64,000 nucleotides of DNA from an uncultured Chloroflexia bacterium (GTDB lineage: Bacteria; Chloroflexota; Limnocylindria; Limnocylindrales; CSP1-4), in contig CAVVPT010000010.1 of assembly GCA_963750125.1 (NCBI GenBank), forward strand, positions 16,147-80,146, read 5' to 3'. Below are positions 35,752 to 45,453 of the stretch, piece after piece. The stretch's first letter is position 1; each line of letters begins with the position of its first letter. Under the pieces are notes generated by a model. The model did no database searches, was not told where the DNA came from, and saw nothing but the letters and a program-made list of their open reading frames with translations. A program made the position numbers and the translations under genes.

Positions 35752-37220
<1,469 letters not shown>

Positions 37221-37379
37221 GATGGCCTCCGTTGTGGTTCGTTCGCTATGCAACCGGCCGCTCAAAGAAGAAACGTGGGGGTCACCCACGTCACGGAGCG
37301 GCCGTTCAGTTGCGCGAAGTATACACCCGGAGGGGTGAATCACTCACGGACCACCCTCTCCCGATGCCCGGGCCGCAAT

Positions 37380-38123
37380 CTACGCCGGTGTGCGCGTGGC
37401 CGGGTCCTCGAGCCCCATCTGCTCCCGCATCGCCGCCAGCCTGGACGCGGCTTCGGCCTCCGTTTGTGCGCGCTCCACCTCGAGCATGCCGATGTCGACC
37501 GACGCGCCCGACACCTCCGTCATCGCCTGCGCCGTCGCGAGGCGACGATCGACCTTCGTACGGATCTCATCGAGGGACGGCGTATCGCCACCGACCGGTT
37601 GGGACAACTGGCGCATCGCCGAGTTCATCTGCTCCTGCATTTTGGCCTGGTCGAGACGGCTGAGGAGCCGCTCGCGTTCGGACAGCGTGCGCTGTAGCGC
37701 CACGGCATTGTCCGCGACGACGTGCTTGGCGCGATCCGACGCCTCGGCCGCGCCGACAAGCGCGCCTTTGAGGTCCTCGACCCTTCCTTCGAGCTCGACG
37801 ATGCGTGTCGCGTAGCTGGCGGCGGCCCGCTCGTAGTCGGCCGCCTTTTCGGTGCGCTCGGCCTTCCGGGCTTCGTCGGCGAGGACGAGCGCCTGACGCG
37901 CCGACGCCGTCGCCTTCGCATAGTCATCCAGCGCGCGGTCGAGCCGCATCTGCAGCTGGGTCTGATTGGCGATGACATTCGCCGCCTGCTCTGCCAGCAT
38001 TCGGTGCTGGTCGCGAGCATCAGCGATCGCCTGCTCCAGTTGCACCTTGGGATCGGCACTCTCCTCCAGGGTCATACCGATCTTCGTCCCCAGATAGCGC
38101 CACCATCGTCCGATCGTGCTCAT
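37380..38123 (-). CDS. pspA: PspA/IM30 (phage shock protein A / Vipp1) family protein
   Basis: MSTIGRWWRYLGTKIGMTLEESADPKVQLEQAIADAR.. plus long coiled-coil heptads, 247 aa. Confidence 0.85.
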   Translation of the reverse strand: MSTIGRWWRYLGTKIGMTLEESADPKVQLEQAIADARDQHRMLAEQAANVIANQTQLQMRLDRALDDYAKATASARQALVLADEARKAERTEKAADYERAAASYATRIVELEGRVEDLKGALVGAAEASDRAKHVVADNAVALQRTLSERERLLSRLDQAKMQEQMNSAMRQLSQPVGGDTPSLDEIRTKVDRRLATAQAMTEVSGASVDIGMLEVERAQTEAEAASRLAAMREQMGLEDPATRTPA

Positions 38124-39946
38124 GCTTGTCTCCTTCCTGGATCCACGTCACTGATTCCGCGGGCGCGCCGGCGCCGCCCGATTTGCCTGATCGCCTCCGC
38201 GGGCGCATCTTCGCCAGGGTCATCGGCGTCGCCGCCGTGATGGCCGGCCACGGATTGCTCGTCGCCGCGGCCACTCAAGCCACGAACGGCCGCCCGAGCC
38301 TCCCCGAAGGCCTGACGGATGCCAGCCGCAGCCTCAGAGGCAGCAGCCCGGAGCCCTGTCGTGGCCTCGCGGACGGACCGTCGCACGCCCCTCGTTGCCT
38401 CGGACAAGGCTGCTCGCACAGCGTTGGCGGCGCGGCGCGCCGCGTCCCGCATGGCGTTCGTGGCGGATCGGATCGACGCCCCCGCCGCTCGCGCCGCCGC
38501 TCCGATCGCGCGACCGATGATCACGACCGGCGCCGCGACGGCGATGAGCGCGGCGATGGCCAATCGCCGCGTCCCGCGGGCTGCGGGCTGGAGCACCGCG
38601 CGATCGAAGGTCCTGGCAGCGGCGACGAGGCCTCGGCCGGTCGCTCGTGCGATCCGGTCAAGGCGGAACACGACGTCTCGCCCCAGGACGACGATCCGTG
38701 CCACCAAAGGCGCCGTCCTTCGAGCGAACCATCGGATGACGGCCGCCAACGCCCGGGCGGCTGCGGTCGTCAGCCGGCCTGCCGTGCGGAGCATGGTCAC
38801 CACGCCAGCGGCGCCGCGTTCCAGGCCGACGAGGGCAGCATGTCCGAGCACCGCCATCCGGGCCTCCAGCCCGCGCCTGGTCGCGTCGACGCCTCGGCGC
38901 ATCCAGTGGAAGAGGCGCACGAGCCCGGCAGCGAGCACGCGAGCCGGTCGAGCGAAGCGGCGGGCAACGGTGCGCAAAACGACGATGAACCGCGCTCCGA
39001 CGGCACGGAGGGACTTCCACGTGAAGCGAAGAAGGTCGGCCATGGCGTGCCCAGCCGCGCGCGCGACGACCGCGATCCGTGAACCGAGCGCTCGCGCCGC
39101 ATGCCAAGTCGCGTTGAGTGTCTCGGCGGTCGCCCGGCCCGCGGCTCGAACGATCACGGCGATGCGTGCTCCGACGGCGCGAACCGATCGCCAGGCGGCT
39201 CGGATCGCGTCGGCGGCCTGGTGCCCGAGCGCGCGCCCCATGACCGCCATCCGCATGCCAACGGCCACGGTCAACCGCCAGGTGGCACGAAGGAGGGCGA
39301 CAATCGGGGCAGCGGCGGCCCGCAGGATCACCGCGATGCGGGCTCCGGCTAGGCGGAGGCCAGCGGCGATGGTGCGAACGACGCGCACGATGAGGTCGCC
39401 GATCGGGCTGAGGAGGACGACTGACCGGGTCAATCCGGCCCGCACCGCGGCGGACGCCAGGCGCGTCGCGGCATTGACGACGCTCGCTGCCGAGCGCATG
39501 AGCACGACGAGTCGCCGCCCGGCGGCGGCAAGGGTCCACCCCAGCATCCGAAGGACGACGGCCGCCTCGTGCTCGAGGAGGCGCAGCATCCGGGCCGTCG
39601 CTCGACCGAAAGCCCGCAACGTGACGAGAATGGCGCGTCCGACGAGCGCCACGGTTTGACCCAAGGCTGCCGCCAGTCGTCGAGCGGCCGGCGGCCCCAC
39701 GCGAGCGAGCCACCGCCAGGCGAGGTAGATGGCCACGAACGGCGCGAGCAGGATGGCGAGCATCCGGGTCCACGGCGATCCATCGACGCCCTGCGGGACG
39801 GGATCCAGCGGCGGGCTCATGACGGAAGTTCCGGACGGCGTCGGTGGCCTTGGCGGGGCGGCGCCAGCCGTCTCGCTGGTCGACGATCGACGCCCTCGAC
39901 GCAATGGCGGCGGCGGAAGCTTGGGCGGACGCTCAACGGTCGCCAT
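38120..39946 (-). CDS. Ala/Arg-rich membrane protein: Pro-rich N-terminus, one TM helix, then ~500 aa of ~22-residue amphipathic repeats; translationally coupled to pspA
   Basis: RBS GGGAGGAGGG + ATG at 39946 (MATVERPPKLPPPPL). TM segment WTRMLAILLAPFVAIYLAWRWLARV. Repeats of the type W..R..RAVGARIAVIVRAAGRATAETLNAT. GC3 periodicity supports this frame over the antisense ORFs. ATGA overlap with pspA. Confidence 0.55.
   Translation of the reverse strand: MATVERPPKLPPPPLRRGRRSSTSETAGAAPPRPPTPSGTSVMSPPLDPVPQGVDGSPWTRMLAILLAPFVAIYLAWRWLARVGPPAARRLAAALGQTVALVGRAILVTLRAFGRATARMLRLLEHEAAVVLRMLGWTLAAAGRRLVVLMRSAASVVNAATRLASAAVRAGLTRSVVLLSPIGDLIVRVVRTIAAGLRLAGARIAVILRAAAAPIVALLRATWRLTVAVGMRMAVMGRALGHQAADAIRAAWRSVRAVGARIAVIVRAAGRATAETLNATWHAARALGSRIAVVARAAGHAMADLLRFTWKSLRAVGARFIVVLRTVARRFARPARVLAAGLVRLFHWMRRGVDATRRGLEARMAVLGHAALVGLERGAAGVVTMLRTAGRLTTAAARALAAVIRWFARRTAPLVARIVVLGRDVVFRLDRIARATGRGLVAAARTFDRAVLQPAARGTRRLAIAALIAVAAPVVIIGRAIGAAARAAGASIRSATNAMRDAARRAANAVRAALSEATRGVRRSVREATTGLRAAASEAAAGIRQAFGEARAAVRGLSGRGDEQSVAGHHGGDADDPGEDAPAEAIRQIGRRRRARGISDVDPGRRQA
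38300..39700. repeat. Degenerate tandem DNA repeats (~66-nt units) under the Ala/Arg repeat protein
   Basis: Recurrent gatcac(g/c)gcgatgcg(t/g)gctccg-like units. Several overlapping long ORFs are open on both strands. Confidence 0.5.
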
Positions 39947-41012
39947 CGCGCATTCCCTCCTCCCCCTCCCGAGTGCGATCGCCGAACCGGGCCGCGATGT
40001 CGCCCAACTGGTCGACCGACCCGACCCCGGTCGCCGTTTCGAGCTCTTCGCGGGCGCGCACGATGGCATCTCGAACGAGCGTGTCGTCCGGCATCGAGGT
40101 CGACGCCACACCAACGCTTCTGGCGCTCGACGCGTGCTTCCCCTTCAGCGCGTCCGTGACCCCGCGGATCGCCTCGCTGCGTTTCCGAACGTAAGCGACC
40201 TGTGCGGAGCTCTGGGGCGGCATGCCCTCCAGGAGGGAAGCCACCTCGACGACCGCCTGATGTGCGATGGCCACGGCCTCGGCGCCCGTCTCGTGGCTGG
40301 GCCCTCTGGCCGGCTCGGTGCTAAGCAACGCACCATAGGCGGTCACGAGCGAACGGACGACGTGATCGGTCGTATCGAGCGGAAGGCCACGCCCGACGGC
40401 TTGGCGGCGGAGACGGTTCTCGCGCCGTGCGGATCGGTGTCGGCCGAGCGCCCGCAGGGGAAGGGCGAGACCAAGGAGGACCGCGATGACGCCCAGCCAG
40501 AGCCCCAGCGTCGAGCCACCCAGGAGCGACCAGGCGAACAGGACGCTGCCGCCGACGACGAGCAGGACGTCGAACGGCCCGGGACGTGCCTGTGGCGACG
40601 GCCCGAAGACCTCGTCGATGAGAGCATCCAGTTCGTCCGGCGGACGGTCACCGGCGAACATCGGGACGAGCGGACCGGGATCGCGCGGGACGATGACGAT
40701 CCGGGACGGGTCGCCCCGGCCCCCATCACGATCCAGATCGGACGCTGCCCCGTTCGAGGCCTCGCGTGCCGTGGATGGCCCCGGCTCGTCACGGACGCGG
40801 GTCATGTTGACACCGGCCGTTGCCCTGATCGTCGTGGTCGCACGCCGGTCGTTCTCGATCCGGATCCCATGGTGGTCGGCATCCATGAACGGATGACGCG
40901 CACCCAGGCAGCGTGTTTCACGCTTGCGACGCGCGTCCTCCCTGCGGAGGAGTACGGCCCAGAGCTGACGACGAACGCGATCGTCCGATGGAGCGTCGTC
41001 GCCGACGCGCAA
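39933..41012 (-). CDS. Membrane protein with two adjacent TM helices and a ~170-aa cytoplasmic C-terminal domain (hypothetical); start uncertain
   Basis: FDVLLVVGGSVLFAWSLLGGSTLGLWLGVIAVLLGLALPL TM hairpin with good GC3 phasing. 14-nt overlap with the downstream repeat-protein gene. Possible starts are at 41012, ~40886 or ~40805. Confidence 0.45.
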   Translation of the reverse strand: MRVGDDAPSDDRVRRQLWAVLLRREDARRKRETRCLGARHPFMDADHHGIRIENDRRATTTIRATAGVNMTRVRDEPGPSTAREASNGAASDLDRDGGRGDPSRIVIVPRDPGPLVPMFAGDRPPDELDALIDEVFGPSPQARPGPFDVLLVVGGSVLFAWSLLGGSTLGLWLGVIAVLLGLALPLRALGRHRSARRENRLRRQAVGRGLPLDTTDHVVRSLVTAYGALLSTEPARGPSHETGAEAVAIAHQAVVEVASLLEGMPPQSSAQVAYVRKRSEAIRGVTDALKGKHASSARSVGVASTSMPDDTLVRDAIVRAREELETATGVGSVDQLGDIAARFGDRTREGEEGMRDGDR

Positions 41013-41023
41013 GTCGGGCGAGA

Positions 41024-42310
41024 TCAGCCCTCGACCGTCGCCTCGGCGCCAGCACCACCTGCGTCACGAACGGTGGCCTCGGGCCCCGGGTAGCGCTGCG
41101 ACACGTACTCCTCGAGGAGCACGATGAACTCGTCGACCAGCCCCTCGCCGCGGAGCGTCCGATCCAGCCTCCCATCGACGAACACCGGAGCGACCGGCGC
41201 CTCGAAGGTACCCGGCAGGCTGATCCCGATGTCGGCGTGCTTCGACTCTCCTGGGCCGTTCACGACGCAGCCCATTACCGCGACCCGGAGATCCTCGACG
41301 CCCGCGTAGGTCTCGCGCCATTCCGGCATCCGGTCCTTCAGATATGTCTGGATCTGCAGCGCCATCTCCTGGAAGAACGTCGATGTCGTCCGGCCGCACC
41401 CGGGACACGCAGAGACCTGCGGCAGGAACGAACGGAGCCCGAGCGACTGGAGGACTTGCTGGGCGACCTCGACCTCGCGTTCGCGCGGCGCGCCGGGCTC
41501 GGGCGTGAGCGACACGCGGATCGTGTCGCCGATCCCCTCGTTGAGCAGGATGGCCAGCCCGGCCGTCGAGGCGATGACTCCCTTGTCGCCCATCCCGGCC
41601 TCGGTCAACCCGAGATGGAGCGGATAGTCACAGCGCGCCGCGAGCAGGCGGTACACGTCGACGAGGTCGCGCACGCCGGAGACCTTGGCGCTGATGATGA
41701 TCCGGTCGTGGCGCAGGCCGGTCCGCTCGGCCAGCTCCGCCGAGCGGAGCGCCGACTCGAGCATTGCGTCGATCATGACGTCGCGCGCGTCGCGCGGTTC
41801 GGCCGCGGTCGCGTTCGCATCCATGAGCTCGGTCAGGAGCTGCTGGTCGAGCGAGCCCCAGTTGACCCCGATCCGGACAGGCTTGTCGTTGTCGATGGCG
41901 ACCTGGACGATCGTCGCGAAGTGCTCGTCGTGGCGCTTGGCGCCGACATTGCCGGGGTTGATCCGGTACTTCGCAAGCAGCGCGGCAGTCTCCGGATATT
42001 CGACGAGGAGCTTGTGCCCGTTGTAATGGAAGTCGCCGATCACCGGTACATCGACCCCCAGGCCACGGACCTTGCGGACCATCTCCGGCACCGCGGCCGC
42101 GGCCTCCTCGGTGTTGACCGTGACGCGGACGAGCTGCGAGCCGGCATGCGCCAGGCGGGCGACCTGGATCGCGGTCGCGTCGGCGTCCACGGTGTCGGTG
42201 TTCGTCATCGACTGGACGACGATGGGATGGGCGGAGCCAACGAGGACCCCGCCGACGTCGACGCTGACCGTCGGCCGGCGGGAGGGCCTCAGCTGATCGG
42301 GCGTGGACAA
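41024..42310 (-). CDS. ispG: 4-hydroxy-3-methylbut-2-en-1-yl diphosphate synthase (flavodoxin)
   Basis: ..[27 protein letters not shown].. (4Fe-4S Cys). 428 aa from the TTG at 42310. Track ORF 41024..43591 is an out-of-frame artefact. Confidence 0.9.
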
Positions 42311-42321
42311 GGGGGGTCCTG

Positions 42322-43428
42322 TTACGTGCCGCCGCCAAGCTGGCGGATGATGTCGGAGCCGGTCACCCAGATCAGGAACGCGAACAGGAAGACGAACCCA
42401 ACCATGTACGTGAGCTGCTCGGCGCGCAGGCTGATCCGCGGCCCGAACAAGGACTTGAGCGTGATCATCAGCATCCGGCCGCCGTCGAGGGGCGGGAACG
42501 GCAGGATGTTCACGACGGCCAGGTTCGCCGACAGGATGGCCGCGACGTAGAGGGTGAGGATGGGGCCGGCGCCCCAGAAGATGTCCCCGAGCTGCGTGGC
42601 GATGCCCACCGGACCGGCTACCGGTGGCAGCTGGGTCGGATTCGACGCCACCGAGCTCACGAGCGTGCCGAGCCCGCCGAGGATCAGACCGAGCGCCCCG
42701 ACAAGATGCCGCCCGCCGGTCGCCAGGGCGTTCGCCGGGTCGTTCTGCGCGTATTCGCCCGACCAGTAGATCTCGAACCCTGTGGGCGAGGCCTTGACCC
42801 CCAGCGCGCCCTGCTTGGCCTTGATCGCGGCTGCGTCGCGCAGCGTGACCTCGACGTCGCGACGGGCTCCGTCCGTGCCGACGATGGTGAGCGTGACCGT
42901 TTCGCCCGGTCGTGCTGCGAGGTCCTCCAGGATCGTCTCGCCGAGCATGAACTGGTAGCGCTTGCCATCGAGCGCGTAGATCGACTCGCCGTCCTGCAAC
43001 CCGGCGGCCTGCGCCGGCGAATCGGGCACAACGGTGCCGATCTTCACACCGGCGTAGGGCGACGCGAACCACGCGATCGCGGCGAACAGCACGAACGCCA
43101 GGATGATGTTCATCAGGACGCCGGCGACCAGGATCCACAGGCGGGTCAGGAGGTTCTGGCTTGAGAAGGAACGCGGATCGCCCTTCCCCTCGCCGTCCTC
43201 GCCCTCGAGCTTGACGAACCCGCCGATCGGCAGCCAGTTGAGGGTGTAGAGGGTCTCGCCCCTGGACCTGAGCACCTTCGCCCGCGGAGGGAAGCCGATT
43301 CCGAACTCGAGCACGCGCACGTTCGCCGCCCGCGCGGTCAGGAAGTGACCCAGCTCGTGAATGAGCACGAGCATGCCGAGCACCACGAAGAACAGGAGGA
43401 TCGTGATCAGGGACTGGACGACGGGCAT
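42322..43428 (-). CDS. rseP: RIP zinc metalloprotease RseP (site-2 protease)
   Basis: HELGHF zinc motif in TM1. PDZ domain. C-terminal LDGG motif ([14 protein letters not shown]). Confidence 0.85.
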
Positions 43429-44645
43429 CAGTGCGTGCCTCCGATGGGTCCGGAAGCGAAGACAGCCCGGACGGCCTGGTCGAGTTCAATGAGCCCCTCG
43501 ACGTCGGGGTCGGCCCCGCCGGTTCCACCGAACCGTTCGACGGCCGTCTCGAGCAGGCGCGGGATGCCGGGAAAGTCGAGCGTCCCGTCAAGGAACCGCT
43601 TCACGGCGACCTCGTCGGCGGCGATCAGGGCCGCCGACGCTCGCGGTCCGGAGCGGCCCGCCTCGCGCGCGATGCGCAACGCGGGGAACCGCGCCTCGTC
43701 GGGCGCCTCGAAGTCGAGTCGGCCGGTGGCGATGAGGTCTGCGGCCGCCGCCGGCGAGGGCAGGCGGTCCGGATAGGTCATGGCGTACTGGATCGGTAGT
43801 CGCATATCAGGGGTGCCCAGCTGGGCCTTGAGGGAGCCGTCGACGAACCGGACGGCCGAGTGGACGACGCTCTGCGGATGGATGACCACCTCGATCGCGT
43901 CGTAGCCAACATCGTACAGCCAGTGCGCCTCGATCACCTCCAGGCCCTTGTTCGCGAGGGTGGCCGAGTCGATGGTGATCTTCGCGCCCATCGACCAGGT
44001 CGGGTGTCGAAGCGCCCGTTCCGGGGTCGCTGCGGCCATCTCCTCCGGGGCCGCCTCCCGAAACGGTCCGCCGGACGCGGTCAGGATGAGGCCGTCCACG
44101 GTTGGCATCCGCTCGCCCACGAGGCACTGCCAGATCGCCGAATGCTCGGAATCGATCGGGCGCAGCCAGGCAAGCGGGCTTCGCATGTGGGGGTCCGAGG
44201 CGCCGTCCGCGAGGCGACGAGCGACCGGCATCACGAGATGCCCGCCGGCCACGAGCGTTTCCTTGTTCGCGGTCGCGACTGTCTTGCCGGTCCCGAGCGC
44301 AGCGAGCACCGGGCGGAGGCTGACCATGCCGCCGGTAGCCACCACAACCAGATCGACGTCGTCGCGGGTGGCCAACCCGACCAGCGCGTCAGGACCGCTC
44401 GCACGGGCGGTCTGGGCCGGCAGCTCGAGTGCAGTGATCGTCATCTCGTCGGCGAGGGCGACCACGGCGGGTCGCAGCAACGCCGCCTGTTCAGCGAGAA
44501 GCGGTCCATTGCTGCCCGCTGCCAGCGCCACGACCCGGAACGCGTCCGGGTGCGCAGCGAGCACGTCGATCGCCTGACGTCCAATCGATCCGGTTGAACC
44601 GAGGAGGGCGACTCGACGCGGCTCAGTTGAGGGCGACGATGACAT
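43428..44645 (-). CDS. dxr: 1-deoxy-D-xylulose 5-phosphate reductoisomerase
   Basis: [21 protein letters not shown]-binding motif. ..[10 protein letters not shown].. and ..[11 protein letters not shown].. ATGA overlap with rseP. Confidence 0.9.
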
Positions 44646-45453
44646 ACAGGAAGACCACCGGGCCGGCAAAGAGGAACGAGTCGATCCGGTCGAGCATGCC
44701 GCCGTGGCCCGGGATGAGATTGCCCGAGTCCTTGGTGGCGGCGGCGCGCTTGATCATCGACTCGGCCAGGTCACCCGCCTGGGCGGCGAGGGCTGCGAGG
44801 GGTCCAAGGAGCAGGCCATGAATCGGCTGCTGGCCCAGGCCCCACAGCAGCACGGTCACGACGATCGTCGACGCGACCATCCCGCCAATGAGCCCGGCGT
44901 ACGTCTTCGACGGGGAGATGTGGGTCAGGAATTTCGCCCGGCCGAATTGCTTGCCGACGAGGAGGGCCCCGGTGTCGTACGACCAGACGGCAAGGAGCAG
45001 GAGCAGGATCCAGCCGCGCTCCCCGCCGAGGAACTCCAGCGGCGCGCCATCCGGCACGGTCGGCGCCACGTTGCCGAGGCGGATGACGAACGCCGTCAGG
45101 GAGACGTAGAACGCCCCGAACACCGTTGCGATCCAGGCGACCAGGCCGTCTCGCGGATCCGGGCGAGTGAACGCGGCTACCGCGACGAGCACGATCCCGA
45201 TTGCCGACAGCAGCAGGCCGCTGCCATCGAGGACGTCCGGGAATGCCGCGTCGAGCACGAGCGTGAGCGCCAGGACAGTGCCGAGCGCGGGGAACGAATC
45301 GTGGCCGGCAGCGCGTAGCAGCCGGAACAGCTCAATGGCCGCGATGGCGGTGATGATCGCGATCGCCAGCGCGAGCACGGCGCCGCCGAATGCGAGCACG
45401 ACGAGGAGGACGGGCACAAGGACCGCAGCGCTAATCGCCCGTTCGCGCATCAC
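44623..45453 (-). CDS. cdsA: Phosphatidate cytidylyltransferase
   Basis: Multi-TM protein. C-terminal signature ..KRAAATKDSGNLIPGHGGMLDRIDS.. Confidence 0.8.
   Translation of the reverse strand: MMRERAISAAVLVPVLLVVLAFGGAVLALAIAIITAIAAIELFRLLRAAGHDSFPALGTVLALTLVLDAAFPDVLDGSGLLLSAIGIVLVAVAAFTRPDPRDGLVAWIATVFGAFYVSLTAFVIRLGNVAPTVPDGAPLEFLGGERGWILLLLLAVWSYDTGALLVGKQFGRAKFLTHISPSKTYAGLIGGMVASTIVVTVLLWGLGQQPIHGLLLGPLAALAAQAGDLAESMIKRAAATKDSGNLIPGHGGMLDRIDSFLFAGPVVFLYVIVALN

Follow-up and report, generated by a model that had tools for sequence, protein, structure and literature searches.

A block of three genes on the minus strand of the 64,000-nt stretch of DNA analyzed here (the window) consists of two genes that we call up and rep, followed by pspA, which encodes a protein of the PspA/IM30 family (bacterial ESCRT-III). 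The gene order up-rep-pspA is conserved across genomes whose PspA proteins are 57-64% identical and occurs in unrelated neighborhoods, and up and rep appear to be two undescribed partner families of a narrowly distributed Psp (phage-shock protein) variant. With modest confidence, we lean to the reading that the block is a three-gene operon and a lineage-specific phage-shock-type stress module, in which the up and rep products would form a membrane platform that recruits or organizes PspA; this function is proposed from synteny and sequence physics. A preliminary description of the same DNA had suggested that rep is translated, that up and rep are cotranscribed with pspA, and that both are probably uncharacterized membrane partners, all of which the analysis supports as far as sequence data allow.

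Layout of the up-rep-pspA block

Features are given below in window positions, with open reading frame abbreviated as ORF, amino acids as aa, and transmembrane as TM.

39933..40886, minus strand: up, the first gene of the block, encoding a 2-TM protein (ORF and translation; 317 aa as called, 290 aa from ATG 40805)
40452..40577, minus strand: 2-TM hairpin of up (residues about 77-118 in the 290-aa numbering; Kyte-Doolittle windows 1.89-2.24)
39933..39970, minus strand: up/rep junction, with Shine-Dalgarno run GGGAGGGGGAGGAGGG, rep ATG at 39946, up stop at 39933, and a 14-nt overlap
38120..39946, minus strand: rep, Ala/Arg-rich (ORF and translation, 608 aa; predicted all-helical and membrane-anchored)
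Residues 1-58 of rep, minus strand: Pro-rich N terminus, predicted disordered
39701..39766, minus strand: N-terminal hydrophobic segment RMLAILLAPFVAIYLAWRW of rep, a putative anchor carrying PFV (residues about 61-82; Kyte-Doolittle 1.84)
38492..39694, minus strand: amphipathic repeat region of rep (residues about 85-485; 29-residue repeats, 11+18)
38273..38491, minus strand: C-terminal hendecad module of rep (residues about 486-558; Arg every 11 residues, at R500, 511, 522, 533, 544, and 555)
38123..38272, minus strand: tail of rep, acidic and then basic (residues 559-608; GC by phase, in frame in L083)
38120..38137, minus strand: rep/pspA junction, with Shine-Dalgarno GGAAGGAG and an ATGA stop/start overlap
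37380..38123, minus strand: pspA (PF04012 match; 247 aa)
37272..37292, minus strand: hairpin resembling a terminator, with a T-rich tail, in the spacer that separates pspA from nusA

The pspA product aligns through its residues 6-235 with positions 5-217 of the 220 in the PF04012 (PspA_IM30) profile, at an E value of 6e-30 and 104.9 bits (gathering cut-off 33.9), and thus belongs to this family. It is 48-64% identical to PspA of Limnocylindrales and Acidimicrobiia metagenome-assembled genomes (MAGs), and its ratio of nonsynonymous to synonymous substitution rates (dN/dS) is 0.14; this and all other dN/dS and indel results come from comparing the window with the orthologous DNA of locus L083, which has 91% nucleotide identity over 3.4 kb. 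The PspA N terminus MSTIGRWWRYLGTKIG, where the membrane-binding helix alpha0 is expected, looks amphipathic as judged by eye.

Both junctions had been correctly described: the pspA ATG (38123-38121) shares an ATGA with the rep TGA, and the upstream membrane protein gene overlaps rep by 14 nt. The pspA ATG has GGAAGGAG 6 nt upstream. A strong Shine-Dalgarno sequence precedes each of the two internal starts, those of rep and pspA, and together with the stop/start overlaps permits coupled translation within up-rep-pspA. An up/rep overlap of 8-14 nt is also present in L083, L084, L085, L087, L088, L091, L095, L096, and the contig encoding P0024, and the 4-nt rep/pspA overlap is identical in L083; distant relatives have gaps of 12-50 nt or a 16-nt overlap at the latter junction. 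The start of up had been placed at 41012, which did not hold, as the most likely starts are 40886 (317 aa) or 40805 (290 aa). The three-gene unit probably ends at the hairpin at 37272-37292, which is a consensus match only, with 0.9 sites per region expected in shuffled sequence. A sigma-70 promoter scan of the region found no promoter, and an Rfam search found no RNA element there.

Coding status of the rep frame

The GC content of the region is 67-74%. With 70-74% GC, a number of long ORFs overlap one another across rep, whose Ala/Arg/Gly/Pro composition is also what would be expected of off-frame GC-rich DNA; on these grounds, 38120-39946 might be a chance open frame that is not translated. 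The preliminary description had chosen the rep frame from hydrophobic periodicity and from its GC content at third codon positions (GC3). The frame was right, but the GC3 argument is insufficient: the rep frame has GC1 0.76, GC2 0.60, and GC3 0.82, and GC3 alone cannot tell it from the antisense ORF 38319-39659 (plus strand, 446 aa) because the two share third positions. What decides is that GC1 exceeds GC2 in the rep minus frame only, together with dN/dS and conservation. The dN/dS of rep, 0.60, is just moderately under 1, which would suit an untranslated frame, but it is the lowest of the six, compared with 0.74 for the antisense frame sharing third positions and 1.0 or more for the others. 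The sole indel over the 3.4 kb, of 3 nt, lies inside rep and is in frame.

Further evidence points the same way. The start is an ATG behind a strong Shine-Dalgarno sequence and the ATGA junction with pspA is precise, gene calling in an independent public assembly of this organism also places a 608-aa gene here, and the amphipathic helix signal described below, 10 standard deviations over shuffled sequence, is not expected of a shadow frame. Moreover, the PFV anchor and the C-terminal Arg columns are kept among members that are only ~30% identical and always encoded between up and pspA. Because of the gene calls, the lowest dN/dS, the in-frame indel, GC1 > GC2, the Shine-Dalgarno sequence with ATG, and the conservation among homologues, we regard the rep frame as real and conclude that it is translated and under weak purifying selection; the reading as a chance open frame, which we consider extremely improbable, is largely refuted. 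ORF 38319-39659 is the kind of shadow frame typical of GC-rich DNA and might lead annotators astray.

Over the last 180 nt of rep (about 38120-38300), the GC-phase signal shifts. A frame change at this end was rejected since L083 keeps the tail in frame and P0023 does so in part, sharing its PAEAI motif, and the shift is attributable to the Gly/Asp/Glu-rich codons of the tail.

Relatives and gene order

An exhaustive phmmer scan with rep over 1.84 billion representatives (E <= 1e-3) returned 10 proteins, comprising five full-length diverged members (P0020, P0023, P0024, P0025, and P0027), one spurious match, and four frame-hopping fragments (P0001, P0019, P0021, and P0022) into which errors in the long-read contigs of close relatives break this same gene. 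Frameshift errors are likewise present in L001 as a whole and in L082:6941-8764, where they shorten the called middle gene from 607 to 547 aa. With only about ten relatives among the 1.84 billion representatives, annotation pipelines will keep rep "hypothetical" or doubt the ORF. For up, 17 relatives were found among 5.8 billion clusters, none with a name or a Pfam domain; a metagenome scan with the up profile yielded two short loci only, and an identical 317-aa up protein (P0002) is called in public assemblies. The loci compare as follows.

Window: up 317 aa; rep 608 aa; pspA present
L083 / L082: up 317 aa; rep 607 aa; pspA present
L001: up partial; rep frameshifted; pspA present
L002 (Limnocylindrales MAG): up present; rep 518 aa; pspA present
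L084: up 279 aa; rep 303 aa; pspA present
L085: up 262 aa; rep 510 aa; pspA present
L086: up 273 aa; rep 471 aa; pspA present
L087: up 267 aa; rep 414 aa; pspA present
L091: up partial; rep 376 aa; pspA present
L095: up 252 aa; rep 444 aa; pspA present
L088: up 179 aa (frameshifted contig); rep 342 aa; pspA probable (tblastn match, 61% identity)
L096, L092, L094: up present; rep cut by the contig end; pspA not reached
P0024 contig (JGI 3300041967): up 275 aa; rep 572 aa; no pspA called

The conservation of the triad in relatives, which the preliminary description had singled out for checking, was upheld: the order up-rep is found in all loci examined, about a dozen Limnocylindria-type (Chloroflexota) contigs, and of the 10 independent loci with contigs long enough to show it, 9 have pspA directly after rep. 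Identity across the triad loci is 57-64% for PspA, 37-45% for up, and about 30% for rep. The block is found in at least five unrelated neighborhoods, flanked by ispG and nusA (window and L082/L083 only), by UvrA and a HisKA_3/GerE two-component system (L084), by glutamate dehydrogenase (L085, L092-L094), or by CorC and a polyprenyl synthase (L086); in all, L002, L084, L085, L086, and L092-L095 carry it outside the ispG/nusA setting. Because the flanks differ between lineages, up-rep-pspA is a self-contained unit and its position next to nusA is incidental. The earlier remark that the block occupies the usual slot of rimP is accurate as a description, since the pspA-nusA spacer of ~160 nt is too short to hold rimP, which does not adjoin nusA in the window or in L082, and no RimP domain is recorded for the genes of the orthologous L082 stretch; the significance attached to that slot did not stand, ispG and nusA flanking the block only in the window and L082/L083. 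On the P0024 contig, a gene for a MoxR-type AAA ATPase lies divergently upstream of up-rep.

The rep family so delineated has 12 members of 303-608 aa, with a variable number of repeats, an invariant PFV anchor, and a C-terminal Arg-hendecad module. We propose to define it by the anchor with PFV, the 29-residue repeats, the Arg-hendecad module, and the slot between up and pspA, all four of which occur in the window rep; the family features are common to L083, L002, L084, L085, P0020, P0023, P0024, P0025, and P0027, and the rep genes of L095 and L096 have at least the anchor, the composition, and the gene position.

A genome scan seeded with PspA returned mostly Acidimicrobiia loci without up and rep. 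Upstream of the nearest pspA genes outside the triad, those of Acidimicrobiia (48-59% identity), lies either a MurJ-like gene or the gene for another conserved TM protein. This TM protein has 250-300 aa beginning MG.I(D/E).LPEHLK... and 61 invariant columns (alignment A5), and is found at L007:9079-9843, L011:2269-3024, L013:9082-9987, L021:8790-9644, L035:9194-9949, and other sites. It was considered as a distant relative of up and rejected (hhalign probability 0.6%); it may be another undescribed lineage-specific PspA partner.

Architecture of rep

The rep product is dominated by Ala (23%), Arg (16%), Val (10%), Leu (10%), and Gly (9%), and it has 97 Arg against 2 Lys residues and a net charge of +68. 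The Pro-rich N terminus, the single TM-like segment, and the amphipathic helicity of the preliminary description are all borne out, by composition, by a Kyte-Doolittle value of 1.84, and by a mean hydrophobic moment that peaks at 98-100 degrees per residue, 10 standard deviations over shuffled sequence. The repeat length given there, ~22 residues, has to be corrected: autocorrelation peaks at lags 29 (z 3.4), 58, 11 (z 2.6), and 40 and is weaker at 18 and 22, and the repeat unit is 29 (11 + 18) residues, ~8 helical turns at 3.625 residues per turn. This period is that of a straight, non-supercoiled amphipathic helix, and the repeats have the register W(R/H/K)xxRA(V/L)G(A/S)R(I/F)(A/I)V(V/I)xRAAG(R/H)xxA(D/E)xL, in which His recurs (GH motif). 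In the clearest repeats, polar residues occur about once per helical turn; by eye, they form a narrow Arg/His stripe of ~100 degrees (estimated, not computed) beside a wide Ala/Val/Leu/Ile face. All 10 rep members analyzed show lag peaks belonging to the 11/29-residue series, with 29 among the top lags in nine, and have moment z values of 8-12 and net charges of +31 to +79. No tandem repeat was found in rep at the DNA level, which indicates that the repeats are old.

The extreme Arg content and net charge of every member, and the position of rep near nusA-infB in the window, might suggest a membrane-tethered binder of polyanions (DNA, RNA, or polyphosphate) whose link to pspA is secondary. However, the nusA neighborhood is not conserved, the Pfam and NCBIfam scans of rep matched no nucleic-acid-binding family, and about three-quarters of the helix surface appears apolar (judged from one polar residue per turn), which is unsuited to a soluble nucleic-acid binder; we consider this role highly unlikely.

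The hydropathy of the N-terminal segment and its conserved PFV motif suggest that rep is membrane-anchored. Residues P69, F70, and V71 are invariant in the 10 aligned members and present in two more, and an anchor of the form RxLT..V.PFV is common to all 12 rep-like proteins. A second TM helix at residues 458-486 was rejected; the segment is hydrophobic in the window and close relatives, but this is not kept family-wide. AlphaFold2 (AF2), given a 7-sequence alignment, models residues 58-558 as essentially one continuous helix without confident tertiary packing, with a mean predicted local distance difference test (pLDDT) score of 54 and scores of 70-82 in the anchor and the C-terminal module. 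The C-terminal hendecad module is the best-conserved and best-predicted part of rep, with R522, R533, R544, and R551 invariant and eight Ala columns nearly so, and is a candidate protein-interaction site.

Architecture of up

The up product is predicted to begin with a cytoplasmic N-terminal region, which leads through a tight hairpin of two TM helices into a ~170-aa helical bundle at the C terminus. An alignment of 16 members has 23 invariant columns, which belong to the motifs VVVPRxPGPL and DELDALIDE(L/V)FG, both in the N-terminal region, ERPGxFD, ...LGLALPAR in the hairpin, G(Y/L)xLD, HxAxxExAxLLxGxxP....Y...R..A, and AR.EL; within the GLALP(A)R motif of the hairpin, L111, G112, L115, and P116 are invariant. 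AF2 gives a mean pLDDT of 72, rising to 88-98 over residues 140-225; the model shows two adjacent TM helices, 77-96 and 99-139, of which the second continues beyond the membrane. In the same model, a small sheet connects the N-terminal motif with residues 141-144, and the C-terminal part folds as a helical bundle. Both termini are probably cytoplasmic: the positive-inside rule, applied to an Arg-rich stretch directly after TM2, suggests this, as does the way in which N- and C-terminal elements pair in the model. The dN/dS of up is 0.44.

Comparison with known families and PspA systems

Pfam searches with 10 rep and 16 up members and NCBIfam searches with the window proteins gave no family match at E <= 1 beyond noise. 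Specifically, no Pfam match to PspB, PspC, LiaI/LiaF-TM, DUF2154, Toastrack/DUF4097, HAAS, or DUF3046 was found at this threshold, and the kinship with LiaI, PspB, or PspC that had been proposed for checking is not supported. Weak matches of up to the TM hairpins of DUF202, NfeD_membrane, and DUF308 are sporadic, in 1-2 of the 16 members. For rep, the Apolipoprotein model PF01442 scores 13.3 bits, far below its gathering cut-off of 90, so that membership is not indicated; sub-threshold matches to it occur in 4 of the 10 members, only in the C-terminal module, where sub-threshold Phasin matches also fall. The best match of the rep profile to the PDB is a de novo designed helical repeat, 5cwb (E 1.7e-4), and apolipophorin III matches weakly (E 0.45). 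These matches reflect a likeness to idealized or lipid-surface helices, not membership; since 5cwb is synthetic, that match cannot reflect common ancestry.

The likeness has limits in both cases. Exchangeable apolipoproteins, apolipophorin III, alpha-synuclein, perilipins, and phasins have an 11-residue periodicity (3 turns per 11) that gives a straight amphipathic face suiting a lipid surface; rep shares the 11/22-residue periodicity (lag 11 significant, 22 weaker), but its dominant super-period is 29, it is predicted to be TM-anchored with its net charge of +68, and its polar face is a single Arg/His stripe where theirs is broad and zwitterionic. The designed repeats resemble rep in their idealized Ala/Leu/Val/Arg-rich helices in regular repeat, but they are compact helical-hairpin solenoids with mixed charges, whereas the AF2 model of rep lacks confident packing.

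The PspA partners listed in the available portions of two systematic surveys include PspB/C, PspM/N, LiaI/F/G, Toastrack, PspAA/AB, HAAS, and SHOCT, as well as band-7, TPM, CesT, thioredoxin, and AAA+ partners, and nothing similar to the up/rep pair is among them (PMC11237479, PMC9239133). For Chloroflexi, the same portions contain only PspA-PspAA fusions in one survey and no mention of the phylum in the other (PMC11237479, PMC9239133), and a literature search on Limnocylindria and PspA found nothing. The accessory membrane proteins of Psp systems, including those of mycobacteria, are phylum-specific and govern how PspA associates with the membrane (PMC11237479; PMC13622631).

The preliminary description had likened the block to the mycobacterial pspA operons through Rv2743c and Rv2742c, which holds as an analogy of operon logic only. 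Like the clgR-pspA-pspM(-pspN) operon (Rv2745c-Rv2742c), the block combines pspA with a lineage-restricted 2-TM protein and, as in the Mycobacterium tuberculosis complex, an Arg-rich protein. In contrast, up and rep precede pspA, the reverse of the mycobacterial order, neither a ClgR-type regulator nor DUF3046 is present, and the predicted TM anchor with ~500 residues of 29-residue repeats in rep has no counterpart there. PspM (Rv2743c) is essentially two TM helices, encoded downstream of pspA, with homologues reported in Actinobacteria only (PMC11237479), as for PspN; up lies upstream of pspA on Chloroflexota-type contigs and adds ~75 aa at the N terminus and a ~170-aa C-terminal domain, both predicted to be cytoplasmic, and thus does not fit this description. 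PspN (Rv2742c) is characterized by a C-terminal DUF3046, which none of the 10 rep and 16 up members has.

Escherichia coli PspB and PspC are inner-membrane partners cotranscribed with pspA, as up and rep are proposed to be, and bind PspA under stress. Unlike up and rep, they are encoded downstream of pspA, are small (about 75 and 120 aa), and are regulated by PspF/sigma-54, and their Pfam models are unmatched here. In the LiaI-LiaH/LiaFSR system of Bacillus subtilis, the gene for a small membrane protein, LiaI, lies just upstream of that for the PspA homologue LiaH, and LiaI is the membrane anchor of LiaH. A HisKA_3/GerE two-component system adjoins there, as it does in L084:3547-5893, where a HisKA_3 (LiaS-type) kinase gene is directly upstream of and codirectional with the block and is accompanied by a GerE-type response regulator, and in L088:2245-3891, where the kinase, also directly upstream and codirectional, is fused to a receiver domain. 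In contrast, the window block has no adjoining kinase, nothing in Lia resembles rep, and no LiaI/LiaF-TM, DUF2154, or Toastrack model matched.

These kinase genes raise the question of whether up and rep are primarily sensors or transducers (LiaF- or PspB/C-like) that inform a two-component system of the state of the membrane or titrate PspA. The cytoplasmic helical bundle of up, well ordered in the AF2 model and conserved, would suit such a role, and the His recurring in the rep repeat could respond to cytoplasmic pH. Yet a kinase is found in just 2 of about 11 neighborhoods and not within the window block, a ~500-residue repeat of variable copy number is unusual for a signaling domain, and no LiaF, Toastrack, PspC, or HAAS-type model matched, which makes signaling as the primary function decidedly improbable.

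Proposed role of up and rep

If up and rep form a platform for PspA, up would be a hairpin membrane protein with both termini inside and a cytoplasmic helical-bundle domain, and rep would be tethered by its PFV helix and extend a straight amphipathic helix of ~500 residues embedded in or lying on the cytoplasmic leaflet. The wide Ala/Val/Leu face of this helix would be buried, and the narrow Arg/His stripe would bind anionic lipid head groups. The two proteins, possibly made in fixed proportion in view of the 8-14 nt overlaps in nearly every locus, would act together to recruit, nucleate, or organize PspA polymers at the stressed membrane. Insertion of rep into the inner leaflet may favor curvature of the sign enclosed by PspA rods, a step that draws on what is generally known of amphipathic-helix wedging and of PspA rods. 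The role would be analogous to that of the non-homologous PspB/C, LiaI, and PspM elsewhere (for PspM, PMC13622631).

Several observations weigh against this proposal. The sole link of up and rep to PspA is synteny, the coupling of up with rep is tighter and better kept than that of rep with pspA, and on the P0024 contig the up-rep pair is followed by a 512-nt gap and a Cys/Met-metabolism pyridoxal phosphate (PLP) enzyme gene, with no pspA called. The BLASTP E value between the window rep and L002 is 1.1 after composition correction, although the alignment is collinear; because distant members are not significantly similar after this correction, part of the rep family signal is compositional. 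rep also evolves fast (dN/dS 0.60), its AF2 model is of low confidence (mean pLDDT 54), and the flank charges leave its topology ambiguous, including whether the anchor spans the bilayer. Finally, a polar face of ~100 degrees is narrower than that of known surface-lying lipid-binding helices and could mean helix-helix bundling.

Some of these points would suit an autonomous membrane-shaping or membrane-coating module, in which PspA is coexpressed as a guard against stress that rep itself causes, a safeguard and not a client. With its narrow polar stripe and wide apolar face, the rep helix resembles membrane-perturbing helices, presumably comparable to the "lytic class" of amphipathic helices, and the up/rep overlap is kept in nearly all loci while the rep/pspA spacing varies, the P0024 pair even lacking a called pspA. 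Nevertheless, pspA directly follows in nine of the ten informative loci, no other conserved gene hints at an independent function, and the best-conserved part of rep, the C-terminal module, looks like an interaction surface and not a lipid wedge. We therefore regard an autonomous module as unlikely and prefer the PspA platform.

The targeting of PspA/Vipp1 (bacterial ESCRT-III) to damaged membrane is an open question, and the known partners PspB/C, LiaI, and PspM are mutually unrelated and lineage-specific. The platform reading would add a fourth, structurally different solution, in a host class of poorly studied but abundant soil and freshwater Chloroflexota. A bolder form of it, which we hold to be quite unlikely, casts rep as a new kind of ESCRT-III/PspA nucleator, a membrane-anchored helix tens of nanometers long that would reach ~75 nm at full extension (500 residues x 0.15 nm). 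In that case, the Arg/His stripe would sense exposure of anionic lipids, leaflet packing defects, or cytoplasmic acidification after loss of proton-motive force, rep and the up hairpin protein would jointly guide PspA polymer assembly, with the species-dependent length of rep (5-14 repeats) acting as template or meter, and rep would be a bacterial counterpart of CdvA or of ESCRT-II/Vps20-type nucleators with a wholly different fold. As an extreme natural single-stripe cationic amphipathic helix with a 29-residue period, rep could also serve as a model of how helices read or shape lipid leaflets.

Flanking genes in the window

The minus-strand order around the block is dxr (43428-44669), rseP (42322-43428), ispG (stop at 41024), up, rep, pspA, nusA, a ylxR-like ORF, and infB. 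The start of nusA is a GTG near 37220 behind GGAGG. The orthologue of NusA in L082 is called at 488 aa. In the window, the 3' end of nusA (about 35760-36110, minus strand) encodes three copies of the basic motif P(A/V)KPKRASRAKTA with Ala/Gly/Pro-rich spacers between them, an unusual repetitive cationic tail.

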